Assembly (NCBI GenBank): GCA_003353795.1
Contig: PIVY01000002.1
Span: 12,552-76,551 of the forward strand
DNA from: a bacterium
GTDB lineage: Bacteria; Krumholzibacteriota; Krumholzibacteriia; LZORAL124-64-63
Length of the DNA stretch: 64,000 nucleotides
Reading direction: 5' to 3'
The notes beneath the pieces were generated by a model. That model was not told the DNA's origin. It saw only the letters and a list, made by a program, of their open reading frames with translations, and searched no databases. A program made the translations under genes and the position numbers. The first letter of the stretch is position 1; every line of letters begins with the position of its first letter. Below, one piece after another: positions 9,451 through 60,599 of the stretch.

Positions 9451-11598
9451 TCAGAAGTCGGCCAGGTCGTCGTCGTCGAGGCCCAACACGTCGCAATCGA
9501 GATTGCCTGCGGGCACCGGCACCGGAGCCGGAGCCGGGGCAGCCGCCGCCGCCGGGGCCGGTCGTGAGGCCACGGGCGCCGGCCGGGGTGCGACGACCGC
9601 GCGGGCTGCGCCGGTGATCGCGGGGGCCGCTGCCGACGCACCGCCGTCGACCAGGCGTCGCAGGTCGTTCACCGAGTTGTGCACCATGAGGGCCTGGTGT
9701 TCGAGGGTCTTGCTGGCGGCGGCCGATTCCTCGCTGCTGGCAGCATTGCCCTGGGTCACCTGGTCGAGGCGGGAAACGGCGCCGTTGATCTCGCCGATGC
9801 CGTCGGCCTGCTCCTTGCTGGCCGACGCCACGTCGCCCACCAGTTGCTTGGCCCGATCCACACTTCCGGTAATCTCGCCCAGGATCTCGCTCACCTGTTC
9901 GGTGGCCTTGACGCCGCTGTCGGCCGACTGCTGGCTGGCCTCGATGAGCGTGGCCGTGCTGCGCGCCGCCTCGGCCGACCGCTGCGCCAGGTTGCGCACC
10001 TCCTCGGCCACCACGGCGAAACCCTTGCCCGCCTCGCCGGCCCGGGCCGCTTCCACGGCGGCGTTGAGGGCCAGCAAGTTGGTCTGAAAGGCGATCTCGT
10101 CGATGGTCTTGAGGATGCGCGCGGTCTCGTCGCTGCTGGCCTTGATGTCGCCGATCACGGACGACATCTGCTTCATGGCGTCCACGCCCTTGCGCGCTGC
10201 GTCGGCGGCCACGCCGGTTTCGCGGTCGGTTTCCGTGGCGTTGGCGGCGGTCTGCTGAGTGCCTGCGGACATCTCCTGCAACGAGGCGGCGATCTCCTCG
10301 AGGCTGGCGGCCTGTTCCGAGGCTCCGTCGGCCATCAACTGGCTGGTGGAGGCGATCTCGCCGGACGAGTGTCCCAGCTGGTCGGACGCGCTGCCGAGCT
10401 GGTCGGCCATGCCGTTGAGCTGCCGGCTCACGCTGCCGGCCAGGAGGAACCAGAGCACGCCCACCAGCAGCAGGGTGATGCCGCCGGTGATCAGGATGGT
10501 GATCATGTTGGCCCGGCCGAGGTCGGCCACGGCCTGCTCGGCAGCCATGAATTCCGACTCGTAGGATCCGGCGCCGATGACCCAATCCCAGGGTGCGAAG
10601 TAGGTGAGGCGCGCCACCTTCATGCGCGGCTCGGCGTCGCCCTTGTTCTGCCAGGGGTACCACTGCTCATCGATGTCGCCGGCCGGCAGGGCCTTGGCCT
10701 TGGCGATGATCTCCTGGATGAAGAGCACGCCGTTGCTGTCCTTGGCCTGCAGGATATTGTCGCCGTCGCGCTTGCCGCCGGCGGAGATGACGTAGTTGCC
10801 CTTGCTGTCCAGCACGTAGACATAACCGGTCTGGCCCACCTTGGTGTCCATGATCGACTGGCGTAGCGCCGTGGCCGATTCCATGGGTACGCCGAAGTAG
10901 CTGATGCCGACCACGTCGCCGCTCGATCCCTTGATGGGCTCGTAGGCGGTGATGTACCAGCGGTCCACTACGTAGGCCTTGCCGCGGAACGTCTGGCCGG
11001 ACATGACGGTCTGGATCACGGGGTTGGGCTGACCGTCGGGATTGATGGCCGGAATGAAGGTGCCGATGGCGCGATTGCCGTCGGTCTTCATCACGTTGGT
11101 GCACACGCGCAGCATGTCGCCGCGGTCGTTCATGCGCTGGAAGATGGTGGCCGTGCCGCCGACCATGTCGCGGGCCTCGTCCACCACGGGGCTCGCCGAC
11201 GCAGGGCTGCGGTTCTGACCCAGCCACTCGCCGCCCACCAGCATGCGCGGCAGGGCGAGCTCGGTGCTCGCCTTGGTGTACTGATTCACGGCTGTCCACT
11301 TGGCGGTGGCGTCGTCGAAGGTGACCTCGCCGTGATTGTTCATGGTCGCGCGCATGGTCGACAGCCCGTGGTTCACGTGCTCCTGGAGTACGGCCTGTTG
11401 CGCCGCGCACATGTTGTAGATGCCCTCGACGATGTGGTCGAGGTCGGTGAAGGCCAGCACGCGGCACTCTTCGGCCGCGGCAGCCCGCATCTGGTTCTGC
11501 TTGACCATCACCACGCCGGTGATGACGACCAGCGGGACCAGGATGACGACCATGCCGGTGGTCAGCAGGCGTGTGCGGAGAGACATGTTGGCGAACAT
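9451..11598 (-). CDS. Methyl-accepting chemotaxis protein with a double-Cache periplasmic sensor, a HAMP domain and an MCP signalling domain.
   Basis: The N-terminal TM segment is followed by a ~300-aa sensor, then TM2. '[37 protein letters not shown]' is the highly conserved MCP signalling motif. The start was chosen at MFANMSL (11598). Confidence 0.85.
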
Positions 11599-18166: not shown

Positions 18167-18241
18167 CCCGCGGTCCTTGTCCCCATGGCCGAAAAGCGGG
18201 ATAATCATGGGTGCCACCTCCGCTCTGTCCGGGAGAGACCC

Positions 18242-19909
18242 ATGCGTATCGCTCTCATGTTCGCCTGTTGCTGGCTCGCCGGCGCCGCCGCGGCCCAGCA
18301 GGTCCCGCTTCCCACCGCGCCGACCTGGATGTCGGACGAGACCGAATACAATGGGACGGGCCTCGACATCGGCGACGTCGACCTCGACGGCTGGCTCGAC
18401 CTTGCCGTGAGCAACGGCAACGACATCACCCAGTCGCCCAATCTGGTCTACCTCAACGACGGCACCGGCCACCCGCTCACCACGGCCGACTGGGCCAGCA
18501 CCGACGAGCGCTACAGCGGCCACTGCCAGCTCGCCGACGTCGACCAGGACGGCTATCCCGAGCTCATGGTGGCCAACTACATCGGCACCGCCTGGGGTCC
18601 TGCCCAGGTGCAGGTCTACAAGAACAACGGCGGTGTCCTCGAGCTGTGGCCCAGCTGGGAGTCGCCCAACGACATCCACACCTTCCGGGCTTCGTTCGGC
18701 GATCCCGACGGCGACGGTGACCTGGATCTGGCCGTGGCCACCGGCGAGTCGTACAACAGCTACGACGAGCAGAACCTGATCTTCTTCAACACGGGCGGTC
18801 AACTCGAGGCCACCGCGAGCTGGCGCAGCACGATCTACGACGCCTGCTACGACACCAAGTTCGTGGATTACGACGGCGACGGCGACCAGGACGTGGCCTT
18901 CCTCGGCGGCGGCGGCCGCACCACCATCTACGAAAATGTGGGCGGCGTGATCGCCACCTCGCCGGTCTGGATGACCGCCACCAACGACGACGGCAACACC
19001 TTCGACTTCGACGACCTCGACGGCGACGGTCGCATGGACATGCTCGTGGGATTCAACTCCCAACTCGGCGGCAGCGGACGCTTTGCCGTGTTCCTCACGG
19101 GCGGTGGCGACCTGCCCACGTCGCCCACCTGGACCAGCGACTTCATCGGCTACTGCTCGGCCGTGGTCTGCGCCGACATGGACCAGCAGAACGGCCCCGA
19201 CCTGGTGACAGGCGGCTGGTGGGAGCCCATGCGCATCTACCTCAACGACGGCAGCGGCGGCTTCGCCACCACGCCGGAGTGGGAGTCCGACGCAGCCTGG
19301 GAGTCAGTGGTGGAGAATATCGCCCTGGCGGACCTGGACGAGGCCGAGACGCGCCTCGAGGTCGCCAATTTTCCGGCGGGCGCGCAGTTGCTCGAACTGC
19401 CGGATCGGCATCTGCAACGCATCGTGAGGGTGAGCACGACCAGCGGTCCGATCCCGGGCGATCGCTGGTGCTCCAGCCTGCGCGACGGCTGGGTGTCGCT
19501 GGACGCTCCCCTGACCGAAGCGGGCACCGTGGAGTACGCCGTGTCCGACGCTCTCGACCTCGCGATCAGCAACTGGGACGACGCCACCTTCGTGTTCCAC
19601 AGCTTGCTGACCACGGCGGCCGTCGACGAACAGACTCCAGGCGTGGTGCTGACCGACGTGCGGGCCTGGCCGAATCCGTTCAATCCGCGGACCACCATCG
19701 GGCTGCGGCTCACGACGGACGTGGGCACGGCCCGGTTGCGGGTGTTCGATCTGCGGGGCCGACTGGTGGAGGTCTTGCACGACGGGCCGTTGCCGGCGGG
19801 CGATCATCGCGTCGATTGGATGGCGCGGGGTGTGCCGAGTGGAGTGTATCTCTACCGGCTGGAGGCGGGCGGCGAGGTCCAGAGCGGCAAGGTCGTGCTC
19901 GCCAAGTGA
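18242..19909 (+). CDS. Secreted FG-GAP/VCBS repeat protein with a C-terminal Por_Secre_tail/FlgD-Ig-like sorting domain.
   Basis: An ATG at 18242 follows GGGAGAG. The signal peptide is 'MRIALMFACCWLAGAAAAQQ'. It has repeated 'D.D.DG..DL' FG-GAP motifs. The C-terminus is 'WPNPFNPRTTIGL...VFDLRGRLV...SGVYLYRLEAGG...KVVLAK'. Confidence 0.75.
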   Translation: MRIALMFACCWLAGAAAAQQVPLPTAPTWMSDETEYNGTGLDIGDVDLDGWLDLAVSNGNDITQSPNLVYLNDGTGHPLTTADWASTDERYSGHCQLADVDQDGYPELMVANYIGTAWGPAQVQVYKNNGGVLELWPSWESPNDIHTFRASFGDPDGDGDLDLAVATGESYNSYDEQNLIFFNTGGQLEATASWRSTIYDACYDTKFVDYDGDGDQDVAFLGGGGRTTIYENVGGVIATSPVWMTATNDDGNTFDFDDLDGDGRMDMLVGFNSQLGGSGRFAVFLTGGGDLPTSPTWTSDFIGYCSAVVCADMDQQNGPDLVTGGWWEPMRIYLNDGSGGFATTPEWESDAAWESVVENIALADLDEAETRLEVANFPAGAQLLELPDRHLQRIVRVSTTSGPIPGDRWCSSLRDGWVSLDAPLTEAGTVEYAVSDALDLAISNWDDATFVFHSLLTTAAVDEQTPGVVLTDVRAWPNPFNPRTTIGLRLTTDVGTARLRVFDLRGRLVEVLHDGPLPAGDHRVDWMARGVPSGVYLYRLEAGGEVQSGKVVLAK

Positions 19910-33723: not shown

Positions 33724-36700
33724 ATGAATCATCGCCCAACCCGACTGATCATCGTGCTGCTCACCTTGTTTGCCATCGTCCTCTCCGCGTCGTCGGCGCT
33801 GGCGGCGCTGGAGTGGGAGAAACGGGCCGCCATCGATCACGGCCTCGTGTGGCTGGCAACCAACCAGTCCATCAACGGCGACCTGGGATACTGGAGCTAC
33901 TCCAACGACGGCACCCTCGCCTGCACCGCCGCTGCGGCGCTGGCATTCATCGAGGAGGACTTTCTGCCCGGCGAGGACGTTGTCATCGACGACATCAACT
34001 ACGGCGACGTGGTGGGCTTCGCGCTCAACTACGTCTTCAATCACGCCGTCGCGGACTCGCGATTCGGCGTGGAGTACGCGGTCTACGAGCGATATGCCGA
34101 GGACTACGACAACGACGGCATCTACGACGACGGTAACGACCAGGCCATCTACTTCGATCCGGGGAATCCCAACCGGCGGGTCTACACCACCGGCATCTGC
34201 GTGCCCATGGTCTTCGCTCTGGGCGAACGTCTGGGAATCAATACCGTCATCGGTCGCGGCTCGGCGGTCGTCAGCGGCATGACCTACGCCGAGGCCATGC
34301 AGGATCTCATCGACTGGTTCTGCTTCGCCCAGGTCGAGCCGAATCGCGGCAACTACCGCGGAGGCTGGCGCTACGATGCGAACTACCCCGACTCGGACAA
34401 TTCCACCGCGCAGTGGGGATCCCTTCCGTTGCTCTACGGCGATTCGTGGGGGCTGGGAGCGCCCGACTACGTGTTCGCCGAACTGGAACTCTGGGTGAAC
34501 TACATCCAGAACGCCAACGGCGGCTCCGGGTATTCCAATCCCGGTAACTACGTCAACGTGGCCAAGACGGGCGGACTCCTGCTCGAGTTGGCGGCCATCG
34601 GCGCACCGGTGAGCGACGCACGGGTGCAGGCGGCGATCGGCTTCATCAACGGCCGCTGGAACACCGGGCCGTCTGGCACCTGGTACGGCAACCTGAATCA
34701 TCCCTATGCCATGTGGGCGGTCTTCAAGGGGCTCGAGGTCTATGACCTCATGGATACCATCACTCTGGATGATCTCGAGATCCTCTTCGGTTTCGGAATG
34801 TCCGCTGCACCTGGCGGCTTCCCCATCGGCACCGTCGACGACTTCGTCATATCCGAGAGTGGCGATTGGTACTCGCACTACTGCGACTACCTCGTGGGGA
34901 TCCAGAACGGAGATGGGGGCTGGAACGGCTATCTGCACTGGGTCGGCGCCATGGCGACCGGCTGGTACATCAACATCCTCGATGGCATCCGCGTGCCGGG
35001 AATCGGCAATCCGGCCATCAGGCTGGTCTCCGAGATTCCCGATGCTTGCGCCAATCCTGGCGACCCGGTGCTCCACACCGCCGCATTCTGGTACGGCACG
35101 CCGGGCTTCCCCGATCCCGACACGCTGCCGGCCGAGAACGTCGAGGTGCTGCTCACCCTCAATCAGCACATGACGTTCGTCGCAGCCAGCGATGGCGGCA
35201 CCTACGACGTGGGCGCCCATACGGTCACCTGGTCCATCGGTGAACTGGCCGACGGAGAGGTGGATACGGTCACCGTGGACGCGGTCGTCGCCGGCACGGC
35301 GCCTGCCGACGCCGAGCTGATCACCGAAGTCGACGTGAGTGCGACCAACGTACAGGAGGAGGACTGGGGCCACGACGAGACGGAGGTTCTCACCTGCGTG
35401 TCCACCTGCGTCTGGAACGTCGCTACCGACGTGGTCGAGCGCGGCGCCACCCACGGCGTGGCCTGGGGCGATTACGACAATGATCAGGACCCCGATCTCC
35501 TGGTCACCGGCAGCGGCTTGAACCACCTGTACGAGAACGTGGACGGCGTGCTCGTGATGGTCGAGGGCTGGTGCGAAGACGAGGAGCCGTCCTACGGAGC
35601 CGCCTGGGCCGACTACGACAACGACGGCGATCTCGATGTCTACGTCGTGAACTCCCTGGTGGCCAACGCGCTCTACAACAACGACGCCGGCGTGTTCACC
35701 CGGGTCGCCGCCGGCGATGCCGAGGACGCCGGAGACGGCTACAATGCCGCCTGGGCGGACTTCGACGGCGACGGCGATCTCGATCTCTACATCTGCAACC
35801 GAGACGGCACCAACCGGTTGCTCGAGAACGACGGCGGCATGTTCACCTCGGTGGGCGGCGTGACCGAGTACACGGGCATCACCCGCGGCTGTGCATTCGC
35901 CGACTACGACAACGACGACGATCCGGACCTCTACATCAGCGTCTACGGCGACAACATGCTCTTTCGCAACGACGGCGGCGTGTTCGTCGACGTCTCGGCC
36001 CCGCCGATGAACGACGGCGGCGAGGGCAAGGGCGTGGCCTGGGCCGACTACGACAACGACGGCGATCTGGATCTCTACCTGGTCAACACCCACGGCGCCA
36101 ACAAGCTGTTCCGGAACGACCTCGATGCCGGCTTCGTCGACGTGACCGACGCACTTCTCGGCGACGAGAACAACGGTCGCACGTGCGCCTGGGCCGACTA
36201 CGACAACGACGGCTGGATGGACCTCTTCTTCACCAACATCACCAGCGGTCGGAACATCCTCATCGAGAACGACGAGGGTGTGTTCACGGATGCCAATTGC
36301 GGTGTGCTCGAGGACACGGCGACGCTGGAATCGTGGGGCTGCGCCTTCGCCGACTACGACGGTGACGGCGACCAGGATCTGGCCATGGCGGTGCGCACGC
36401 TCAACGGTCCGAGCAAGGTGTTCCGCAACGATCTGACGTTCGGCGAGCCGGCGAACTGGCTGCAGATCGACCTGCGCGGCGTGGCCAACAATCGCTTCGG
36501 TGTGGGCGCCCGCATCGTGGTCGATACCGGCGAGCAGACCCTGATGCGCGCCGTGAATGCCAACGGCGCCTACCTGGGGCAGCAGCCGCTCACCGCCAGC
36601 TTCGGGCTGGGCGCGGCCACGCACGTGGATCTGACCGTGCACTGGCCCAACGGCGAGGTCCAGACCCTGGCGAATCTGCCGGTGAACCGCCGGCTGGAGA

Positions 36701-37026
36701 TCGTGGAAGCCGCCGGCGCGGTGGGCGTGGACGAGTTGCCGACGTCGCCGCTCCTGACGGTGACCAACTATCCGAATCCGTTCAACCCCAGCACGACCCT
36801 GGAGTTCTCGCTGCCGCGCAGCGCCGAGGTCGAGTTGAAGGTGCTGGATGCGCGCGGTCGGCTGGTCAGGACGTTGCTGGCCGGCGAGACCATGGTTGCC
36901 GGCGTGCATCGCGTGCGGTGGCAGGGCGGCAGCGACTCCGGTCGGGATGTGCCGTCGGGCGTGTACTTCTATCGGTGCGGTGCGGGCGGTGAGGTCGTGA
37001 CCGGAAGGATGGTGCTCTTGAAGTAG
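33724..37026 (+). CDS. Giant secreted CRTAC1-like protein. It has an N-terminal prenyltransferase/terpene-cyclase-like alpha-toroid region, about 10 FG-GAP/VCBS repeats, ASPIC/UnbV domains and a C-terminal Por_Secre_tail/FlgD-Ig-like sorting domain.
   Basis: The signal peptide is 'MNHRPTRLIIVLLTLFAIVLSASSALA'. 'WADYDNDGDLDLY' type repeats occur about 10 times. 'RFGVGARIVVDTGEQTLMRAVNANGAYLGQQ' is an ASPIC/UnbV motif. The C-terminus is 'YPNPFNPSTTLEF...VLDARGRLV...SGVYFYRC...RMVLLK'. Confidence 0.75.
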   Translation: MNHRPTRLIIVLLTLFAIVLSASSALAALEWEKRAAIDHGLVWLATNQSINGDLGYWSYSNDGTLACTAAAALAFIEEDFLPGEDVVIDDINYGDVVGFALNYVFNHAVADSRFGVEYAVYERYAEDYDNDGIYDDGNDQAIYFDPGNPNRRVYTTGICVPMVFALGERLGINTVIGRGSAVVSGMTYAEAMQDLIDWFCFAQVEPNRGNYRGGWRYDANYPDSDNSTAQWGSLPLLYGDSWGLGAPDYVFAELELWVNYIQNANGGSGYSNPGNYVNVAKTGGLLLELAAIGAPVSDARVQAAIGFINGRWNTGPSGTWYGNLNHPYAMWAVFKGLEVYDLMDTITLDDLEILFGFGMSAAPGGFPIGTVDDFVISESGDWYSHYCDYLVGIQNGDGGWNGYLHWVGAMATGWYINILDGIRVPGIGNPAIRLVSEIPDACANPGDPVLHTAAFWYGTPGFPDPDTLPAENVEVLLTLNQHMTFVAASDGGTYDVGAHTVTWSIGELADGEVDTVTVDAVVAGTAPADAELITEVDVSATNVQEEDWGHDETEVLTCVSTCVWNVATDVVERGATHGVAWGDYDNDQDPDLLVTGSGLNHLYENVDGVLVMVEGWCEDEEPSYGAAWADYDNDGDLDVYVVNSLVANALYNNDAGVFTRVAAGDAEDAGDGYNAAWADFDGDGDLDLYICNRDGTNRLLENDGGMFTSVGGVTEYTGITRGCAFADYDNDDDPDLYISVYGDNMLFRNDGGVFVDVSAPPMNDGGEGKGVAWADYDNDGDLDLYLVNTHGANKLFRNDLDAGFVDVTDALLGDENNGRTCAWADYDNDGWMDLFFTNITSGRNILIENDEGVFTDANCGVLEDTATLESWGCAFADYDGDGDQDLAMAVRTLNGPSKVFRNDLTFGEPANWLQIDLRGVANNRFGVGARIVVDTGEQTLMRAVNANGAYLGQQPLTASFGLGAATHVDLTVHWPNGEVQTLANLPVNRRLEIVEAAGAVGVDELPTSPLLTVTNYPNPFNPSTTLEFSLPRSAEVELKVLDARGRLVRTLLAGETMVAGVHRVRWQGGSDSGRDVPSGVYFYRCGAGGEVVTGRMVLLK
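35590..36430 (+). repeat. Intragenic near-identical DNA repeats encoding FG-GAP units, of the form gcctgggccgactacgacaacgacggcgatctcgat.
   Basis: About 27-40-nt near-identical units are visible at 35596, 35744, 36031, 36187 and 36340. Confidence 0.6.
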
Positions 37027-37094: not shown

Positions 37095-39887
37095 TCATCG
37101 GGGGAGATGTCCGACCTCCAGTTCGTAGGTCAACCAGGTGAGGTTCGCCCCGGAATCTGCTGCGATGTGGCGGCGGCGGACCTCGCTGAGCGCGTCCCAC
37201 GCGCCGGTCAGCCCCGCGCCGCGGGTGCGTGCGAGGAACTCGCTCATGAACGCCGCCGCGGCGGCGTCCTCGATGGTCCAGCGGGCGGCGATCACGCCCG
37301 CAGCGCCGGCGTCCGTGAAGGCATCGGCGAGGGACGGTCCGGTCACGGTTCCGATCGCGTGGCCCGAGGCGCTCCGGCAACTGGAGAGCACCACCAGCTC
37401 GCAGCCGGAGAGGTCCCGGCCCAGGATGTCGGCAAAGGTGAGCCGGTCACCGACGGGATCGTGATCGGCCGGGTCGGCGGCGCAGGGCAGGTAGCTGCGG
37501 TAGGGCATCTCCGGGTCATGGGTGGCGTGGCCCGCGAGGTAGATCATGCGGGCCCGGGGCAGGTGCTCGAGGATGGCCTGCTTGCGGGCGGCGGCGTCCA
37601 TCAGCAGCACGGGGTCGGGCAATCGCGCGGCGGCCAGCTCGGCCTCGACCCGGACGTACGGCAGGGAGCGGAGCGATGGGCGCTCGCGCTTCAGGGACGA
37701 CGAAAGCTCCGGCACGCCGACCACGCAGCTCAGGCGGTTGTCGCTTGCCGCGGTGGGCCCGTCGTCCACGAGCCGCAGGTAGGCCGTCTGCCAGCGCGCC
37801 GCGAGGGGCTGATAGTCCGCCGGATCGCCGAGATTGCAGGCCTCGAGCGCCAGCGGATCCACTGCTGCGGTGGTGGCGATGAGCAGGCGGCCGCCCGTGT
37901 CGGCCCGCACCCAGTCCGGCATGAGAACCTCGGTGACCTCGGCGAGCTCTCGCGCCAGCTCGCGGGATACGGGCGCGTGCGGCGTGGCTACCCCCTCGGC
38001 GAGGCGTAGAGGTACCACTGCCAGCAGGGGCGCCACGGCGTTCGCCGGGATCGAGTCGCAGGCGACGCTGCCGTCGATGATCTGCCAGCGGAGCACCTGG
38101 TCGCCGAGCCGGGCATACACCAGCGCCCGGTCGTCGCCGGTTCGCGTCCAGTCGGCGAGCTCGTCGGCCTCGCTGCGGCCAAAGGCCAGCAGGCGCTCCA
38201 CCGTGCCGCCTGCGCCGGTGACGTGGTGGGTGGTCGCGTATCGTCGGAGTTGTCGCCACGCCAGTTCGACGGCGAGGCCGCCGCGCGGATCGTCGGCGAA
38301 GTGGCGGTGGAGCTGCTCACGGAATCCGTCGAGGCGGCTCAGCATGAGGTACACCTCGACCCGCTCGCCCCAGGCCGAGAGCCTGGTCAACAGGTCGGCG
38401 AGAGCCGCGTCCGCGTGCACTGCAGCGAGGCTGGCGTCGCCCTGCAGCTCGGCGATCTGCAGCGCGAGGCGGCTAGTCTCGAAGCTCGGCGGCCCCGCGT
38501 CGACGGACCTGGCCAGGTGAATCGCGGCGCTGTCCGCCCGTCCCGCCGCCACGTGGCCCGACGCGATGATGGTGTGGAGGCGGCGGCCGTGGTCGCCGAG
38601 GCCTTCCCGCCGGACGTAGGCGAGGCCCTCGTAGGCAAGGGCGATGGCGCGGCGGTGCTCCCCCCGCTCGACGAGCCAGGATGACCAGTCGGCCAGGACG
38701 GTGGCGTAGTCGTAGTTCCGCGGCAATGAGGTCGTCAACTCGGCGAGGCACGCGTAGACCGAGTCCGCCGCGGCATGCCGACCCACGTGTGTCAGGTAGC
38801 CAGCCTGGGTGCGGAGGGTGACCGCCAGGTAGCTGGCCTGCCGCGGTTCGGCATTCAGGAGCGTGACCTGCCCGAGCAGCAGTTCGGCCCGCGGCAGTCT
38901 GCGGCCGACCAGGTCCCAGCAGCCGAGGTCAGCGTGGAAGGCGAGCCTGGCCGCCAGGAAGCGGACCTCGATGTATCCGGCGTCGAGCCGGCGCGCCACG
39001 GCCACGGCCTCGTCGTAGTGCTCGGCCGCCAGGCTGAGCTCGCCGCGACCGCGATGGTAGGCGGCCAGGATGGTGTGGATCCGGCCGGCCTGGGCGGGGA
39101 GTCGGGCTGCGAGGGCTAGTTCGAGGGCCTCGTCGGCCAGCAGCATGGCGGTGTCCCGGCGGCCGGCAGCGAGACGGTCGTCGCAGAGCGTTCCGAGCAT
39201 ATGGCTGAGCTGGGGCGTGAGTCCCGCCTCGCGAGCGAGGCGGATTCCGCGGTAGAGGTGCGCCCGCTTGCGGTGGTCCTGGCCGGCGTCGGCGGACAGT
39301 TCGACCATCCGGCTCTCGATATAGGTCTCGGACCAGGGGCAGCCGGCGAGGGAATCGGATAGGGCCTGCATGGCTCGGTACTTCTCGTCGACCGGGGCGT
39401 CGGTGGTCCGGTGGACGCGCATCACCTCATTCTTGAGGCGGGTCACGCGCAGGCCTTCGCTCGTCGGGTGCTCGCGCAGGTAGCGGACCAATGTCTGTGG
39501 ACCCTGCGAGTGACCGCGGTCGGCGACGATGGCGGCCAGGCGTTCGATGGCCGGCATCGTCTGCGCCAGTGACGATTCGTAGGCTGCGAGAGAGGTGTCG
39601 TCGATCGAGTCGATGATCAGGCCGACGTGGTCGATGAGCTGATGCGCATCGAGCGCGTCGCAGACCGCGGCGAGCTCGTCGTCGGTGCCGGAGACCAGGG
39701 CGTCGGCGAGGCGGGGGTCGAGGTTGGGCGCATGGCGGATCAGGATCGCGCCGGGAGCTTCGGCACCGGTGAGGCGCATGAGGACGATCACGGCCACGAC
39801 GACCACGATCGACGCGGCGGCGATCGACCATTTCGAAAGGGAACCGTGCCGGTGGGTGAAGGCCATCATCACGGGGTCACGGTTCAC
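37095..39887 (-). CDS. Membrane-anchored TPR-repeat protein with a C-terminal CHAT (caspase-like) peptidase domain.
   Basis: A GTG start at 39887 overlaps the anti-sigma stop as GTGA. The N-terminal TM segment is 'WSIAAASIVVVVAVIVLMRL'. A long TPR-like helical region follows. The C-terminus has 'YLAGHATHD' and 'VVLSSCRSASG', the CHAT His/Cys dyad. Confidence 0.75.
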   Translation of the reverse strand: MNRDPVMMAFTHRHGSLSKWSIAAASIVVVVAVIVLMRLTGAEAPGAILIRHAPNLDPRLADALVSGTDDELAAVCDALDAHQLIDHVGLIIDSIDDTSLAAYESSLAQTMPAIERLAAIVADRGHSQGPQTLVRYLREHPTSEGLRVTRLKNEVMRVHRTTDAPVDEKYRAMQALSDSLAGCPWSETYIESRMVELSADAGQDHRKRAHLYRGIRLAREAGLTPQLSHMLGTLCDDRLAAGRRDTAMLLADEALELALAARLPAQAGRIHTILAAYHRGRGELSLAAEHYDEAVAVARRLDAGYIEVRFLAARLAFHADLGCWDLVGRRLPRAELLLGQVTLLNAEPRQASYLAVTLRTQAGYLTHVGRHAAADSVYACLAELTTSLPRNYDYATVLADWSSWLVERGEHRRAIALAYEGLAYVRREGLGDHGRRLHTIIASGHVAAGRADSAAIHLARSVDAGPPSFETSRLALQIAELQGDASLAAVHADAALADLLTRLSAWGERVEVYLMLSRLDGFREQLHRHFADDPRGGLAVELAWRQLRRYATTHHVTGAGGTVERLLAFGRSEADELADWTRTGDDRALVYARLGDQVLRWQIIDGSVACDSIPANAVAPLLAVVPLRLAEGVATPHAPVSRELARELAEVTEVLMPDWVRADTGGRLLIATTAAVDPLALEACNLGDPADYQPLAARWQTAYLRLVDDGPTAASDNRLSCVVGVPELSSSLKRERPSLRSLPYVRVEAELAAARLPDPVLLMDAAARKQAILEHLPRARMIYLAGHATHDPEMPYRSYLPCAADPADHDPVGDRLTFADILGRDLSGCELVVLSSCRSASGHAIGTVTGPSLADAFTDAGAAGVIAARWTIEDAAAAAFMSEFLARTRGAGLTGAWDALSEVRRRHIAADSGANLTWLTYELEVGHLPR

Positions 39888-40744
39888 TCATCACCGTGAC
39901 GCGCGAGGATGGCCGCCGCGCGCGCGGCAACGGCCGATGGCGCGTGTCCGGCAAGCTGCTGGAGTGTCGGCAGGGCGTCGTCGGCATGGCCCAGGTCCAG
40001 CTGCACGATGGCCAGGTTCAGCAGCGTGGCTGGCTCCGTGTCGCCCGCCGCGATGGCGTCCTGTAGGAGAGCCTGCGCCCGTTCGAACTCTCCGCCGCGG
40101 TAGGCGACCACGGCGGCTGCCACAAGGACGGTCTCCGCGTCGGGGTAGCGCCGCAGGGCGTCCGTGGCAAAGGTGCGGGCGGTGGAGACCTCGTCCAGGG
40201 CGAGGTAGCCGCCGATCAGCCACATCGCGGCCGAGGGGTCGTTTGCCGAGTCGTGGTAGCGGTCGGCCAGGGCCTGCACGGAGGCCACGAGCGCCGAGTC
40301 TTCGGCGATGCCGCGCAGCGCCGGGCCGGCCTCGGGTTCGCCGACGGCGCCGGGGAAGACCATGGCGCCACCGTGCCGATCGGCCAGGACCCCGGCGATG
40401 GGGCCGACCAGTTCCGGCGCCAGCGGCGGCGGGTCGACGACGGGCGATACGATCAGGAACACCAGCACTGCGGCCATTGGCAGTCCCACGATCGCCGCCC
40501 AGCGCCGACGGGCCACGCGGGGTCTGACGCTGCCGCTCGTGCTGGCCAGAATGGTCGCCACCATCGAGGCCGGCGCGGCGAGCCCCTTCCGGGCGCGGAA
40601 TTCACGGCTCGTCGCCTCCGCCTCGAATACCGCATCCCGGCAATGCCGGCAGGACGCGAGGTGATCGCGTTGCCCTCGGCTCAGGCCGGACTCGCCGTGA
40701 TCGGCCAGCCGCGCCAGGAGTGCCGGGGACAGGTGCACGTTCAC
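39884..40744 (-). CDS. Anti-sigma factor with an N-terminal zinc-finger anti-sigma domain, one TM segment and a C-terminal TPR-like domain.
   Basis: A GTG start at 40744 overlaps the sigma-factor stop as GTGA. 'HLASCRHCRD' is the zinc-finger motif. The TM segment is 'WAAIVGLPMAAVLVFLIVSPVV'. The C-terminus is TPR-like. The Arg/Pro-rich N-terminus in the table ORF is a shadow of the sigma-factor gene. Confidence 0.7.
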   Translation of the reverse strand: MNVHLSPALLARLADHGESGLSRGQRDHLASCRHCRDAVFEAEATSREFRARKGLAAPASMVATILASTSGSVRPRVARRRWAAIVGLPMAAVLVFLIVSPVVDPPPLAPELVGPIAGVLADRHGGAMVFPGAVGEPEAGPALRGIAEDSALVASVQALADRYHDSANDPSAAMWLIGGYLALDEVSTARTFATDALRRYPDAETVLVAAAVVAYRGGEFERAQALLQDAIAAGDTEPATLLNLAIVQLDLGHADDALPTLQQLAGHAPSAVAARAAAILARHGDE

Positions 40745-41640
40745 GACTTTGCCTCCAGCCCGAGGACGAGACGGCCGGCGCTGACGCCGTCGGCGACGCC
40801 GAAGGCCTTGCGGAGCTTCCGCAGGGCCCGTTCGACCACGGTGTAGGCCTGCCGCTGGTTCTTCAGCTTCATTTCCGACGCGATCTGGCGGGCCGACAGG
40901 TTGCGGCCGAAGCGCATGGCCAACGCCTGGCGCTCCTGCTCGTCGAGGCGGGCGAGTTCCGCGCGCATCCTGCTGAGCAAGTGGTCCCGCTCGTCGGTGT
41001 GCGACTCCGCCTCCGGCTCGATCTCGACGGTTCGGGACGAGGCCTCGTAGCGCACATGGTCCACGTACTCGAGCCAGCGACCCGAGGGCACGCCGAGGCG
41101 GTGGGCCTGGCGGTCGAAGCGCAGTCGACGGCGCGCACGGTGGTCCAGCTGTCCGTCCATGTCCGAGAGCAACGACAGGAAGTCTTCGTAGTCGAGCCGT
41201 GCGCCTTCCGATTGCATCCGGCCGTAGACCGCTTTCGACGGCCAGCCCTGGACGAAGAACAGCTCGAAGACCCGCTGGTCCGTGGCCGGACGGCGCAGGA
41301 TCGGTGCGGGCAGGCGCACACGGCCGCGTTCGCGGCGGAGGCGGTCGACGGCCGCGTTGCGGACGATGAGTACCAGCCAGGTCCCGAAGGACGAGCGGCC
41401 GTCGAACTGCTCGAGCTTGCCGCGGAAGAGGCACTCGAATACGTCGGCCACGACGTCGCGGGCGAGGTCGTGATCATGGAGATGTCTATGGGCGACGGAT
41501 AGGGCGAGGCCCGTATAGTCCGTCACGAGGTCGCGCCAGGCCTCCGTGGAGCCAGAGACGGCAGACTGGACCTGGGCGAGATCCTGGTGTCCTTGCAAGA
41601 GTGGTATCGCTCCGGTAGCTGCGGGGTTCGGCGCCGGCAA
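40741..41640 (-). CDS. Sigma-70-family (ECF-like) RNA polymerase sigma factor with a long insertion between regions 2 and 4.
   Basis: Region 2 is 'DVFECLFRGKLEQFDGRSSFGTWLVLIVRNAAVDRLRRER'. Region 4 is 'LDEQERQALAMRFGRNLSARQIASEMKLKNQRQAYTVVERALRKLRK'. At 299 aa it is longer than typical ECF factors. Confidence 0.7.
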   Translation of the reverse strand: MPAPNPAATGAIPLLQGHQDLAQVQSAVSGSTEAWRDLVTDYTGLALSVAHRHLHDHDLARDVVADVFECLFRGKLEQFDGRSSFGTWLVLIVRNAAVDRLRRERGRVRLPAPILRRPATDQRVFELFFVQGWPSKAVYGRMQSEGARLDYEDFLSLLSDMDGQLDHRARRRLRFDRQAHRLGVPSGRWLEYVDHVRYEASSRTVEIEPEAESHTDERDHLLSRMRAELARLDEQERQALAMRFGRNLSARQIASEMKLKNQRQAYTVVERALRKLRKAFGVADGVSAGRLVLGLEAKS

Positions 41641-41816
41641 ACGCCGTGGTTCCGCGACGATTGTAACACATACTCGCCGTGCGTGTAATCCTCGGGACTC
41701 GTCCGTCTATAGCTACCATAGTTGGGGGATGAGGGAGAGACGCCGTCGGGACCGTCCAGCCATCGGGGCTGGGCGGTCCTTTTTGGTATCGGCACGGGAA
41801 TCGATCCTGATTGGTC

Positions 41817-41845
41817 TTGACGGATCGCGCTCGTTGTCGTAATAT
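41817..41845 (+). promoter_or_regulatory. Sigma70-like promoter of the trp-aro supraoperon: TTGACG-N17-TAATAT.
   Basis: TTGACG is at 41817-41822, then a 17-nt spacer, then TAATAT at 41840-41845. This is about 55 nt upstream of the leader peptide start. Confidence 0.6.
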
Positions 41846-41896
41846 TAAACATCAAATTCAAGCGCGCCGAGGTGCGCGCCCCGTCCGGAACCCGGA

Positions 41897-41986
41897 ATGG
41901 ACCCGATGACCCGCATCCGCAGCATCCTGATCGCGACCGACAGCCACCGTTATTGGTGGTCCTGGCGCGATCTGCCTTGCGGATAG
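41897..41986 (+). CDS. trpL: trp leader peptide MDPMTRIRSILIATDSHRYWWSWRDLPCG, with three Trp codons within four codons.
   Basis: In-frame ATGs occur at 41897 and 41906. TGG TGG TCC TGG lies at 41954-41965 and the TAG stop at 41984. The peptide sits between the promoter and trpE, immediately upstream of the terminator hairpin. It is too short to appear in the ORF table. Confidence 0.7.
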   Translation: MDPMTRIRSILIATDSHRYWWSWRDLPCG

Positions 41987-42041
41987 GGGTCGTTCCGGAC
42001 ATCGAGACCAGCTGACAGACAGCCACCGGAACCGAAGCAGA

Positions 42042-42072
42042 CCCGCTATCCGCAAGGAGCGCGGGTTTTTTT
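42042..42072 (+). terminator. Intrinsic terminator (attenuator) in the trp leader, 40 nt upstream of trpE.
   Basis: CCCGCtatCCGCaaggagcGCGGG is followed by TTTTTTT. The segment 42046-42057 (CTATCCGCAAGG) is perfectly complementary to 41975-41986 (CCTTGCGGATAG) at the 3' end of the leader ORF, which is an alternative anti-terminator pairing. Confidence 0.7.
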
Positions 42073-57133: not shown

Positions 57134-57936
57134 TGTCGGCCCATGCGAGCAAGCTCGCCGTCTACGCCCAGCCGGCCGCCCGCCACGGCCGCGGCGGATT
57201 CCTCTCCGGCAGCCTCGGCACGAGCCTGCTGATCTTCGGGGGTCTCGGTCTGTTGCTACTGGCCGTGGACCTGCCCGAGGTGGTCCGCAGTCCCCAGCGG
57301 GTCGCCCATCGCATCGCTTTCCACGCGCCGACGCCGGCACCGGCGCCGGTTCCCGACATCAAGCCGGTAGTGGCCGAGATCGTTCCGGATACCCGGCTCG
57401 CGCAACCCATCGACCGACCGGCAACCGTGCCGGTGATCGAAACGCCCGTGGTGGCTGCACCGGATCCCGAGCCGGTGCCCACCGCGCCGGCGCCTCGTCG
57501 CGTCTATGGCGTGCGCAAGGTCATGGCCCGCGGCCTCGGCAGCGGCAGCGGCGCCGGGTCGGTGGGCCTGGTGACCAGGCGCGGCAACGTGCTCGACGGC
57601 GTGGCCGACACTCTCACCGCCACCGCCGGCGACCTGCGCGGCGATCTGGCCGCCCTCAGCACCGTGGAGCGCGCGCCCGAGCCCGTGCACCAGGTGAAGC
57701 CGCGCTACAGCGAGGCGCTCATCGCCGCCCGCGCCGGCGGCGTGGTCACCGCCAAGCTACTCGTCGACGCCGAAGGATCGGTGGCCGACGTCGTGGTGCT
57801 CGAGCACATCGGCCACGATTCGGCCCAGCTCGCCGCCGACGCCTTCCGGCAATTCCGCTTTCACCCCGCACTGCGTCACGGTGAGGCCGTGGCGGTGTGG
57901 ATCGTCTATCGCATGCGTTTCGAGTTCCAGAAGTGA
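57133..57936 (+). CDS. tonB: TonB-family energy transducer.
   Basis: An ATGA overlap joins it to the upstream exbD. It has an N-terminal TM segment, a Pro/Ala-rich linker 'PTPAPAPVPDIKP' and a C-terminal TonB_C domain 'VKPRYSEALIAARAGGVVTAKLLVDAEGSV'. Confidence 0.8.
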   Translation: MSAHASKLAVYAQPAARHGRGGFLSGSLGTSLLIFGGLGLLLLAVDLPEVVRSPQRVAHRIAFHAPTPAPAPVPDIKPVVAEIVPDTRLAQPIDRPATVPVIETPVVAAPDPEPVPTAPAPRRVYGVRKVMARGLGSGSGAGSVGLVTRRGNVLDGVADTLTATAGDLRGDLAALSTVERAPEPVHQVKPRYSEALIAARAGGVVTAKLLVDAEGSVADVVVLEHIGHDSAQLAADAFRQFRFHPALRHGEAVAVWIVYRMRFEFQK

Positions 57937-57944
57937 GCCAGAAC

Positions 57945-60599
57945 ATGATGCTTCGCACCCTGATCCCCGTCGTGCTCCTGCTGGCCCTGCCTGCCATGGC
58001 GACCGCGCAGGACGATGCTCCCGAGATCCTCGAACCCGACGTGGCTCCCACGCTGAGCCACTTCGCCGAGGCCGTCTATCCACCGGTCGCCCTGCGCGAG
58101 GGACGCGAAGGCGCCGTGTTGCTGGAGATGCTGGTCCTGGAGACCGGCCGGGTCGACTCGGTGATCGTGGTCGACGGCCTCGCGCCTGACCTCGACGCCG
58201 CCGCCGCGGCCGCCGTCGCAGAGTTCGTCTTCACGCCGGCCGAGGCCGGCGGCGAGCCCGTACCCGTCTGGGTGCAGTTCGAGTACGTCTTCTCCATCAG
58301 CGAGCAGACCCGATTCATCGCCGAGTACGTCAACGTCCGTGGCCGGCTGCGCGAGATGGGCACTCGGGTGCCGCTGGCAGGCGCCATGGTGGTTGCCGCG
58401 TTTCCGGATTCGTTGGCGCGCCCGGCGCTGGACGTTCCCTGGGACGCGTACCTCGACCGCATCGGACACTTCGCCGGCCAGTACCTGGAGGAGGGCCGGC
58501 TCGTCGCCTTCACTGACGATGACGGGCGCTTCTCGTTCAAATCGCTGCCGCCCGGCGAGGTCGTGTTCTCCTTTCCCAACGCCGGCTACGAGGCTTTCCA
58601 GGAGACCGTCCTGATCGCGGCGGAAGAACTCGTGGAGGTGGATTCCTGGGCCCGCCGCAGCGCCTACAACGAGTACGAGGTCGTGGTCTACGGCCGCGGC
58701 GAGGAAACCGAAGTCTCGCGGCAGACCCTGTCGGTGACCGAGGTCGAGCGCATCGCCGGCTTCGGCGGTGACGTCATCAAGAGCATCCAGGCCCTGCCCG
58801 GCGTGGCTCGGCCCACCATGGAAAATCCCGCGGCCATCGTGATCCGCGGCAGCGGCAACTACGACACCCGCTTCTTCCTGGACGGCATCGACATCCCGTT
58901 GCTCTTCCACTACGGCGGCCTCAAGTCCACCTACAACTCGCTGTCACTGGGTAGCGTCGACATGTATCCCGGCGGCTTCGGCACCTCGTTCGGCAACGCC
59001 ATCGGCGGTGTGGTGGAGCTCAAGGGTCGGCCCGGTCGCAAGGATCGCTGGCGCACCGTGCTCGACGCCAGCATGCTCGACGCCAGCTTCCATACCGAGG
59101 GGCCCCTGGGCGACAAATTCTCCCTCACCCTCAGCGCCCGCCGCAGCTTCATCGGCGAAGTCATGGACGCCGCACTCTCGGGCAACGACGATTTCAACAT
59201 GGCCATGGCGCCCTACTACTGGGACGCGATCGGCCGGCTCGACTACGACCCGGCACCGGGCCACCACCTCTTCGCCACGGCCTTCGCGGTGAAGGACAAG
59301 ATGTCCATGGTGGTGGCCGACGCGCAGGAGGGCAGCGCCTCGGTCAACGCGGCCACCGACGAGGTCGCCATGGACATTCGCTTCAGCCGCTACATCCTCG
59401 GCTACGACGCGCGGCTGGGCGAGCGTGTCCAGAATACATTCCGCGCCGCCTACGGCCGTCAAAGCGAATCCGGCCACGTGTTCGGCCACTTCGACTGGGA
59501 GGGCGGGGGACCCTTGTGGCAGCTGCGCGACGAGCTGTCGGTGTCGTGGAATCCCTGGCTGGCCACCGTGGTGGGCGGCGAGTGGATCCGCACGCCGTAC
59601 ACCTATTCGGTGGCCGCCGAGGGCTGGCGTCGCAGCACCGTGGAGCAGACGTTCGGGCTGCAGGGCGTCTGGGCCAATCTCGAGCTGCGCCCCACCAAGA
59701 ATCTTCTGCTCATCCCGGGCGTCCGCTACGACTACTACGACCACCTCGACAAGGACGAGGTGTCCTACCGGTCGAGCGCCCGCTGGCGCTATCATCCCGA
59801 CCGCTCCTTCACCGCGTCCTACGGAACCTACAACCAGATGCCCGCTCCCTCCGGCCAGTCCACCGATCCGGTCTTCGGCAATCCCGACCTGCCGCCCACG
59901 CTGGCCCGCCACGCGACCCTGGGCCACGAGTGGCGCATCAACGACCGCCTCTCGCTCAAGGTGGAGGGCTACCACAACACCCAGGAACTGATCCCGTCGG
60001 AGACCGACAGCCTTGGCCTGAACTTCGCGCCCGACACCGACGCCCGCATGTACGGCTTCGAGTTCATGCTCCGCCACGAACCCAGCGAGCGTTTCTTCGG
60101 CTGGATCAGCTACAGCCTCGGTCGTAGCGAGCGCCAGTACTCGCGCCGACCCAGCACCTCGGTGACCGAGTGGGATCCGGCGGACTGGATCCTCTTCGAG
60201 ATGGACCAGACTCACCACGTCGAGGCCGTGGGCTCGTGGAACCTGGGACGGAACTGGAGCTTCGGCACCCGCATCCAGTACGTCAGCGGCGTGCCCGTGA
60301 CCCCGCTGCTCAGCTATTCCTCGGGTCTCTTCGAGTTCGACGCCGACTCCGGCGAGTACATCGAGGTGGGCGGCGAGTACCTGTCCGACCGTATGGAGCC
60401 GTACTTCCGCACCGACCTGCGTCTCGACAAGAAGTGGATCAACAAGCGCACCATCTGGACGGCGTATCTCGATCTGCAGAACGCGAACTACTTCGTCCAC
60501 AACAGCCCCGAGGGCTTCACCTACAACTACGATTACTCGGAGCGCGAGGAGTACGGCTGGATCTTCATGCCGTCTCTCGGGCTGCGCGTGGAATTCTAG
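57945..60599 (+). CDS. TonB-dependent receptor-like outer-membrane protein (Oar-like) with N-terminal TonB_C-like and CarboxypepD_reg-like domains.
   Basis: It has a signal peptide. 'AVYPPVALREGREGAVLLEMLVLETGRVDSVIVV' is a TonB_C-like motif. 'DDDGRFSFKSLPPGEVVF' is CarboxypepD_reg-like. The plug region is 'IQALPGVA...IVIRGSG...FLDGIDI'. The C-terminal beta-barrel ends in an aromatic residue (…RVEF). Confidence 0.75.
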   Translation: MMLRTLIPVVLLLALPAMATAQDDAPEILEPDVAPTLSHFAEAVYPPVALREGREGAVLLEMLVLETGRVDSVIVVDGLAPDLDAAAAAAVAEFVFTPAEAGGEPVPVWVQFEYVFSISEQTRFIAEYVNVRGRLREMGTRVPLAGAMVVAAFPDSLARPALDVPWDAYLDRIGHFAGQYLEEGRLVAFTDDDGRFSFKSLPPGEVVFSFPNAGYEAFQETVLIAAEELVEVDSWARRSAYNEYEVVVYGRGEETEVSRQTLSVTEVERIAGFGGDVIKSIQALPGVARPTMENPAAIVIRGSGNYDTRFFLDGIDIPLLFHYGGLKSTYNSLSLGSVDMYPGGFGTSFGNAIGGVVELKGRPGRKDRWRTVLDASMLDASFHTEGPLGDKFSLTLSARRSFIGEVMDAALSGNDDFNMAMAPYYWDAIGRLDYDPAPGHHLFATAFAVKDKMSMVVADAQEGSASVNAATDEVAMDIRFSRYILGYDARLGERVQNTFRAAYGRQSESGHVFGHFDWEGGGPLWQLRDELSVSWNPWLATVVGGEWIRTPYTYSVAAEGWRRSTVEQTFGLQGVWANLELRPTKNLLLIPGVRYDYYDHLDKDEVSYRSSARWRYHPDRSFTASYGTYNQMPAPSGQSTDPVFGNPDLPPTLARHATLGHEWRINDRLSLKVEGYHNTQELIPSETDSLGLNFAPDTDARMYGFEFMLRHEPSERFFGWISYSLGRSERQYSRRPSTSVTEWDPADWILFEMDQTHHVEAVGSWNLGRNWSFGTRIQYVSGVPVTPLLSYSSGLFEFDADSGEYIEVGGEYLSDRMEPYFRTDLRLDKKWINKRTIWTAYLDLQNANYFVHNSPEGFTYNYDYSEREEYGWIFMPSLGLRVEF

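Follow-up and report, generated by a model that had tools for sequence, protein, structure and literature searches.

A conserved gene trio encoding an ECF-like sigma factor, a transmembrane anti-sigma factor and a TPR-CHAT protein: a possible split relative of the DdvS-DdvA switch

Three consecutive minus-strand open reading frames (ORFs) in a 64,000-nucleotide stretch of contig PIVY01000002.1 (assembly GCA_003353795.1, Krumholzibacteriota), hereafter the window, encode a sigma-70-family factor of the extracytoplasmic function (ECF)-like type (40741..41640), a transmembrane (TM) anti-sigma factor (39884..40744), and a membrane-anchored protein (37095..39887) that combines tetratricopeptide repeats (TPR) with a C-terminal CHAT caspase-like domain. 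The trio is conserved in distant relatives, the TPR-CHAT protein has an intact His-Cys dyad, and it is similar to the periplasmic region of DdvA, an anti-sigma factor of Myxococcus xanthus. We propose that the three genes may form a split switch of the DdvA type, in which the CHAT protein would serve as the sensor and, in trans, as the site-1 protease that cuts the anti-sigma ectodomain, and we assign this reading a probability of about 0.45. Release of the sigma factor by CHAT proteolysis, as suggested in a preliminary description of this DNA, is a reasonable idea; the proteolytic switch itself we infer.

Including the window, the trio was found at ten loci with pairwise identities down to ~25-30%. 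Two gene arrangements were observed: the three genes are colinear in the window and at loci L001, L005, L018, and L026, while the CHAT gene is divergent at L003, L007, L019, L020, and L027. The anti-sigma homologue adjoins the sigma gene at every locus, and the flanking genes differ at every trio locus. When loci were selected by the sigma factor, a TPR-CHAT gene was adjacent, together with the anti-sigma gene, in all five that had enough flanking sequence (L018, L019, L020, L026, and L027); L026 and L027 had been picked on purpose as distant members of the sigma family, and the contigs of L021, L024, and L025 were too short to give a CHAT context. When loci were selected by the CHAT protein, a long sigma gene and a gene for a zinc-binding anti-sigma protein with TM helix and TPR were adjacent in four out of six (L001, L003/L004, L005, and L007, the last in a metagenome-assembled genome labelled Candidatus Eisenbacteria). 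Matches from Planctomycetota cover the CHAT domain alone and have neither a sigma nor an anti-sigma gene adjacent, and a metagenome scan with an alignment of three sigma sequences yielded two loci (L022 and L023) that match sigma region 2 alone. An exhaustive profile search with the sigma family recovered 255 representatives (clusters at 50% identity) at E<=1e-30, nearly all of full length. In these genome comparisons chance adjacency of the three genes is excluded, because the trio recurs in independent loci.

The TPR-CHAT protein, originally described as a 930-aa chain with an N-terminal TM anchor, a long TPR array and a CHAT domain with His and Cys motifs, was confirmed in each of these parts. 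A TM anchor is predicted at residues 22-40 (39768..39824; mean Kyte-Doolittle hydropathy of 2.6) and is followed by the motif (V/A)PNLDPxLA (39702-39734), shared by the relatives, by an alpha-solenoid/TPR scaffold at residues ~45-582 (38142..39755), and by the CHAT caspase-like domain at residues ~585-925 (37113..38135). Pfam model PF12770 matches residues 651-911 with an E-value of 3e-31. The predicted catalytic residues His787, within AGHATHD (37527-37529), and Cys837, within LSSCRSASG (37377-37379), are both invariant in 11 of 11 relatives, and this invariance argues for an active protease. The AlphaFold2 (AF2) model, with a predicted local distance difference test score (pLDDT) of 79 and a predicted template modelling score of 0.72, comprises the N-terminal TM helix, a solenoid of ~540 residues and an alpha/beta CHAT domain. 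Some of the relatives begin with a TM anchor and others with a lipoprotein-like signal and a Cys after it; in every case the motif VP[NSQ]LD comes next. The interchange of the two kinds of anchor speaks for export of the protein body and its tethering to the membrane; since a TonB-dependent receptor gene in the window points to a diderm host, the compartment would be the periplasm. Two annotated CHAT starts are probably wrong, as an in-frame anchor or lipobox with the VPNLD motif lies upstream of them (L026, ~9875-10097; L027, 7619-~8040).

A Foldseek search with the CHAT model placed DdvA at the top (8rot_A, 3.8e-14; 8rw5, 4.7e-14), with ~1000 aligned columns. The CHAT family profile had DdvA as its top PDB match as well (8rot_B, E-value of 1.8e-17), in an alignment that runs through both motifs and pairs the dyad with H862/C907. 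The protein is a member of the TPR-CHAT class and is nearest in sequence to DdvA, whereas its structural ranking depends on the method; it is, in summary, a predicted extracytoplasmic TPR-CHAT protein specifically related to that of DdvA. Family profiles were needed for this result, as searches of the single CHAT and anti-sigma sequences against PDB sequences returned nothing useful. A word-indexed homologue search likewise under-reports the family, with three full-length CHAT relatives and no anti-sigma relative beyond the query itself.

The anti-sigma factor was claimed to contain an HxxxCxxC zinc finger, a single TM helix and a TPR-like tail, and all three elements are borne out by invariant ligands, hydropathy and Pfam TPR matches. 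Its N-terminal zinc anti-sigma domain, predicted to be cytoplasmic (40595..40744), carries the sequence HLASCRHC at residues 28-35 (40640-40663) and a second conserved His at position 4. The predicted ligands His4, His28, Cys32, and Cys35 are invariant in nine homologues, L026 having Cys for the first His. This is the pattern of class I zinc anti-sigma domains, namely H-x3-C-x2-C with a His or Cys ~24 residues before it. Pfam model zf-HC2, by which the zinc finger had been expected to be recognized, matches six out of nine members of the family (best E-value of 6.7e-5), and the family profile matches RsiW (7e-5), the nuclear magnetic resonance structure 8RLZ of the DdvA N-terminal domain (2e-3), and RslA (5e-3). 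The single TM helix at residues 85-103 (40436..40492; mean Kyte-Doolittle hydropathy of 2.6) is found in all homologues and is flanked by charges of +5/0 on the N side (five Arg/Lys) and +1/-3 on the C side, which by the positive-inside rule suggests an N-in/C-out orientation. Both the CHAT domain and the anti-sigma TPR tail are thereby predicted to lie outside the cytoplasm, in agreement with the shared compartment asserted in the preliminary description.

The otherwise variable linker that leads from the TM helix of the anti-sigma factor to its TPR domain contains the family pattern [LVF][LV][LF]PG ... R[GS], represented in the window by MVFPG-x9-ALRG at residues 128-145 (40310..40363), which might be a docking or cleavage site. 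The TPR domain, predicted to be extracytoplasmic, follows at residues ~150-286 (~135 aa; 39887..40297) and is matched by Pfam, NCBIfam, and PDB TPR entries; the Pfam models ANAPC3, TPR_19, TPR_14, and TPR_6 score between 1e-6 and 8e-6 over residues ~180-280. It is plausible that this ectodomain serves as a docking partner. The anti-sigma gene is duplicated in one lineage: tandem paralogues that are 65% identical follow one sigma gene at L003 (7204-8972) and L004 (3489-5257). In the closely related L002 (3071-3946), the second paralogue, the CHAT gene and a gene for a 987-aa protein were kept, while the first paralogue was lost along with the sigma gene.

The sigma-70/ECF-like identity of the first gene product is supported by matches to Sigma70_r2, Sigma70_r4, and TIGR02937. 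Region 2 lies at residues 38-105 (41326..41529; Pfam Sigma70_r2, E-value of 2e-13), and its best PDB sequence matches are the ECF factors AlgU, SigW, and SigE. The canonical region 4 occupies residues 215-280 at the C-terminal end (40801..40998), according to the AF2 model and to Pfam Sigma70_r4 (residues 229-278, E-value of 3e-5). In the NCBIfam scan, only the superfamily model TIGR02937 (sigma70-ECF) was matched, at 83 bits where the cutoff is 43. The protein therefore has sigma-2 as well as sigma-4 sequences of ECF type that characterize group 4 sigma-70 factors, and its gene overlaps that of its presumed cognate anti-sigma factor by 4 nt. However, the two globular domains and short unstructured linker of ECF factors are not what the model shows, for an extra folded domain stands between regions 2 and 4.

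This segment had been described as an unusual insertion of ~100 aa. It is real and conserved throughout the sigma family, but rather than a loose insertion it is a well-folded helical domain (residues 107-202; 41035..41322), the N-terminal half of which resembles the helix-turn-helix (HTH) of sigma region 4. In the AF2 model of the sigma factor (mean pLDDT of 80.5), it consists of six helices with a pLDDT of ~90 and is separated from the canonical region 4 by a low-confidence, probably disordered linker at residues 203-212. A profile of this domain built from 28 sequences matched region 4 of FliA (6.9e-4), WhiG (2.8e-3), SigK (4e-3), and a second FliA (0.015). Foldseek ranked the three-domain factors SigB and RpoS first, and an equivalence of the middle domain to sigma region 3 was considered on that basis; it was dropped once the domain profile matched region 4. 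A Pfam scan of the middle domain had no match to Sigma70_r3 and merely weak ones to region 4. The architecture proposed here runs from sigma-2 through a sigma-4-like HTH, which is extended by helices, and a linker to sigma-4; it is held with moderate confidence because the profile E-values are marginal. The second sigma-4-like HTH between sigma-2 and the canonical sigma-4 is kept across the ~255 clusters, and no published account of it was found. In its main text, the paper that re-classified ECF factors (PMC7826278) mentions neither a comparable sigma architecture, nor CHAT, nor a matching ECF group. In contrast to ECF41, ECF42, and ECF238 as presented there, the extra domain is located after sigma-2 and ahead of sigma-4 instead of at the C-terminus and is a second sigma-4-like one; moreover, extension-bearing groups are described in that text as typically without a cognate anti-sigma factor, whereas the sigma factor of the window has one.

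The DNA of the window is chromosomal and GC-rich (64-72% GC). The longest ORF for the sigma factor encodes 299 aa from TTG 41640, although the start at TTG 41598, which corresponds to the deposited protein of 285 aa, is more likely. The anti-sigma gene encodes 286 aa, as in the deposited protein. The three genes had been called almost certainly co-translated on account of GTGA overlaps at both junctions, which is well founded for the first and overstated for the second. At 40741-40744 the sigma stop and the GTG start of the anti-sigma gene overlap as GTGA, with GGAGG 7 nt 5' of the GTG, and the same 4-nt overlap is found in eight of the 11 loci including the window (also L001, L003, L018, L019, L020, L025, and L027); translational coupling is well supported at this junction. 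A GTGA is present at 39884-39887 as well, but the CHAT start is ambiguous. The CHAT gene encodes 930 aa from GTG 39887 and 924 aa from ATG 39869; the deposited protein of 924 aa corresponds to the ATG, six codons later and 14 nt past the anti-sigma stop. Since the deposited start is later and the other colinear loci have short gaps of 12-45 nt, coupling is only possible at the second junction.

Upstream of the sigma gene, a promoter-like site of the housekeeping type with an extended -10 element (ATTACA-18-TACAAT with TG upstream; 41660..41689, minus strand) was recognized by its match to the consensus; the promoter scan gave three sites where 0.3 were expected. Elements of the TGnTAnnnT type occur at L001 and L018 at an equivalent position relative to the sigma gene. 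A search for an autoregulated ECF-type promoter common to the loci yielded no common motif; all that it showed, in the closest relatives, were these extended -10 elements, which are housekeeping-like.

The preliminary description stated that no sigma/anti-sigma/CHAT module had been described. This does not hold, since DdvS-DdvA (PMC6061681; PMC11506125) and Csx29-Csx30-CASP-sigma (PMC10028731) precede it; among the papers searched, those that bring TPR-CHAT together with a sigma factor were on CRISPR and DdvA only. In Myxococcus xanthus, the ECF sigma factor DdvS is paired with DdvA, a transmembrane zinc anti-sigma factor with a fused periplasmic TPR-CHAT region (PMC6061681; PMC11506125) of the separase/craspase type (PMC11506125). 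This region blocks the protease RseP sterically, and its removal turns DdvA into an RseP substrate (PMC11506125). A signal-induced self-cleavage by CHAT, in trans within a dimer, was put forward by the authors as the site-1 cut that precedes RseP, but they could not demonstrate it (PMC11506125). The survey of DdvA-type proteins covered fused proteins only and found them in Myxococcota and also in a single species of Comamonas (PMC11506125).

The module in the window resembles DdvS-DdvA in several respects. The sigma gene is followed by the anti-sigma gene; an N-terminal zinc domain of the CHCC/HHCC type, a single TM helix and a TPR-CHAT with a conserved His-Cys dyad, predicted to be extracytoplasmic, are all present; and the proposed logic, with a cut by CHAT as the site-1 step ahead of RseP, is the same. 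The Foldseek alignment covers essentially the whole periplasmic region of DdvA. Because the CHAT protein alone accounts for that region, the ~135-aa TPR ectodomain of the anti-sigma factor, which has no separate counterpart in DdvA, is an additional element. In contrast to DdvA, the zinc/TM protein and the TPR-CHAT protein are products of separate genes with their own anchors, in the window and at all loci, so a cut made by one in the other would be a genuine trans cleavage. The sigma factor, with ~290 aa and its extra folded domain, is not a minimal ECF factor. Sequence identity to DdvA is just ~16-18%. DdvA itself lacks a three-helix active-site motif. The hosts belong to uncultured lineages, one of them labelled Candidatus Eisenbacteria, and not to Myxococcota. 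The module also lies outside the defence-island setting that applies to a subset of DdvA-type genes even in Myxococcota, and no gene for CBASS, CRISPR or another defence system lies nearby.

In type III-E craspase, the TPR-CHAT protease Csx29 cleaves Csx30, an inhibitor of the ECF-like CASP-sigma, and in the model of its authors the inhibition is relieved (PMC10028731). Cleavage in trans of a separately encoded sigma inhibitor by a TPR-CHAT protease is thus a feature of craspase and is proposed here. However, craspase is cytoplasmic, RNA-guided and encoded in a CRISPR locus with Cas7-11, and Csx30 is not a zinc/TM anti-sigma factor, whereas the CHAT protein of the window has a membrane anchor or export signal, its anti-sigma factor is single-pass and cas genes are missing; the module is not a member of that system. 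With the RseA/DegS/RseP and RsiW/PrsW/RasP pathways it shares a sigma factor that is co-transcribed with its single-pass anti-sigma factor as well as an extracytoplasmic domain that would presumably be removed first, and with RsiW also the class I zinc anti-sigma domain (profile E-value of 7e-5). The candidate site-1 enzyme is, in contrast, a clan-CD caspase-like CHAT protein encoded within the module, while the serine protease DegS and the metalloprotease PrsW are encoded elsewhere; a site-2 protease was not identified in the window.

The following sequence of events is conceivable. In the resting state, the cytoplasmic zinc domain of the anti-sigma factor would bind the sigma factor and hold it at the inner membrane, while the anti-sigma TPR ectodomain and the tethered TPR-CHAT protein, both predicted to be extracytoplasmic, would constitute the sensory part and may contact each other. 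A signal, probably a protein, would activate CHAT, which would then make the site-1 cut in the anti-sigma ectodomain in trans; the conserved juxtamembrane segment [LV][LF]PG...R[GS] is a plausible site. An RseP-type site-2 protease and cytoplasmic proteases would remove the remainder and free the sigma factor to act on its putative regulon.

Several observations weigh against this split switch. Co-conservation of the trio fits equally well with CHAT as an output of the sigma factor or as a non-proteolytic co-sensor. Mutants of the DdvA dyad had no detectable effect, which leaves a site-1 role unproven even there (PMC11506125). The anti-sigma factor of the window searched alone had no Pfam zf-HC2 match at E<=10. 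The predicted topology of both membrane proteins is drawn from hydropathy, charge and N-terminal anchors only, and the scanned genes of the window include none for a site-2 protease. Finally, two CHAT relatives lack an adjacent long sigma gene: at L002 an anti-sigma paralogue stands beside CHAT, and at L006 just a canonical ECF sigma gene of 202 aa is found, ~3 kb off. These two loci, and the fact that the window by itself shows mere adjacency, could also be quoted for the notion that the three genes lack a functional link and came to lie together by chance or through operon hitch-hiking. That notion is very improbable and is effectively refuted by the ten independent loci with two gene orders, ~25% identity and differing flanks, as well as by the adjacent CHAT gene in every sigma-selected locus with enough flank.

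Other explanations accept the functional link and give CHAT another task. The TPR-CHAT protein could be a co-sensor or scaffold that attaches to the anti-sigma TPR ectodomain or to a ligand and so gates a conventional site-1 protease or RseP, with its proteolytic activity aimed at itself or at another envelope protein. The precedent of DdvA, where steric blocking of RseP is demonstrable and the dyad mutations had no detectable effect (PMC11506125), speaks for such a role, as do the conservation of the trio and the TPR modules in both partners, which typically mediate protein-protein contacts. A purely structural role, however, would not be expected to keep the dyad invariant in 11 of 11 divergent relatives, and a steric block exerted by one chain on another would depend on a stable complex of the two; we consider this explanation rather unlikely. 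Alternatively, CHAT could be an output protease, controlled by or co-expressed with the sigma factor and acting on envelope or secreted proteins, in which case the anti-sigma TPR domain would be the sensor. The divergent CHAT gene in half of the loci is a common layout of ECF targets, the anti-sigma factor has an ectodomain of its own that is absent as a separate unit in DdvA, and secreted proteins with FlgD_ig or Por_Secre_tail sorting domains, which would be possible substrates, flank the module in the window and at L003/L020, L019, L027, and L005. Yet these proteins are non-homologous apart from the sorting domain and are abundant, with three in the window alone, and a shared sigma-dependent promoter motif was not identified. 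Moreover, among solved structures the one nearest in sequence is an anti-sigma factor's sensory/regulatory TPR-CHAT, and in the colinear loci CHAT lies in the sigma operon behind the housekeeping-type promoter-like site, so it would be made constitutively instead of being induced. On balance an output role is unlikely, and the split switch with CHAT as the site-1 protease is preferred. The three points on which the preliminary description had made its case depend, namely domain support for CHAT and the zinc anti-sigma domain, a common compartment, and conservation of the trio in related genomes, did not turn against it.

The neighbours of the module in the window are trpEGDC, genes for prolyl-tRNA synthetase, arginine deiminase, Fe-S and aldo-keto reductase proteins, a methyl-accepting chemotaxis protein, and secreted FG-GAP proteins. 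A defence-system context was considered and dropped, as PADLOC returned nothing relevant and the neighbours are of the housekeeping type; neither cas nor defence genes were found among the scanned genes of the window or the homologous loci.

Large secreted proteins with a C-terminal sorting domain (FlgD_ig or Por_Secre_tail) are encoded beside the module in ~6 out of 10 loci. The one in the window lies on the plus strand at 33724-37026; others are at L003 (4161-7124), L019 (1569-4778), L027 (2474-4879 and 9872-13066), and L005 (3655-3984). In the L003/L020 lineage, the gene of the sorting-domain protein is inside the operon. The remaining parts of these proteins vary and include FG-GAP/ASPIC, CarboxypepD_reg/TIG, a beta-propeller, and a 987-aa protein of unknown nature. 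They may be regulon members or substrates of the protease, or may simply reflect the abundance of such proteins in these genomes. The window contains more FlgD_ig-tailed or FG-GAP proteins, together with an unusual 900-aa fusion of TonB_C and a TonB-dependent-receptor beta-barrel, on the plus strand (5-2104, 18185-19909, and 57897-60599). This content fits a diderm host of the Fibrobacteres-Chlorobi-Bacteroidetes (FCB)/Eisenbacteria type.

A region that looks like a trp attenuator precedes trpE (GTG 42073) on the plus strand (41817-42072). It comprises a sigma-70-like promoter (TTGACG-17-TAATAT; 41817-41845), a leader ORF of 29 codons (MDPMTRIRSILIATDSHRYWWSWRDLPCG; 41897-41986) with three Trp codons within five, and a terminator-like hairpin with a run of seven T directly before trpE (42048-42072). 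The intergenic region from the sigma gene to trpE had no match in Rfam. In the stretch that separates the sigma gene from the trp leader, a strong terminator-like hairpin with a 14-bp stem, including 10 GC pairs, and a following T-run is present on the plus strand (41748-41790). There is no plus-strand gene upstream of it, and the transcript that it terminates might be an antisense or small one.

Coupling of TPR-CHAT proteins to sigma factors reaches beyond the reported Myxococcota and is untied to defence islands, since the sigma family comprises ~255 clusters and a CHAT link was seen in every sigma-family locus with enough flank. We tentatively suggest, at somewhat less than even odds, that the module represents a sizeable unrecognized family of envelope signalling in uncultured FCB-type or Eisenbacteria-like bacteria, with a dedicated CHAT site-1 protease acting in trans and a sigma factor with a duplicated sigma-4-like region, unrelated to phage defence and maybe monitoring or controlling surface and secreted proteins with sorting domains. 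The extra HTH of the sigma factor raises the question of whether its task lies in promoter recognition, in auto-inhibition or in binding of the anti-sigma factor. DdvA unites enzyme and substrate in one chain, and the central site-1 idea is unproven (PMC11506125). Here the enzyme and the putative substrate are separate proteins, so binding and cleavage would be directly testable with purified ectodomains and point mutants. If the proposal is true, this would be the first system from nature where CHAT cleavage of the DdvA type could be reconstituted with a separate enzyme and substrate.

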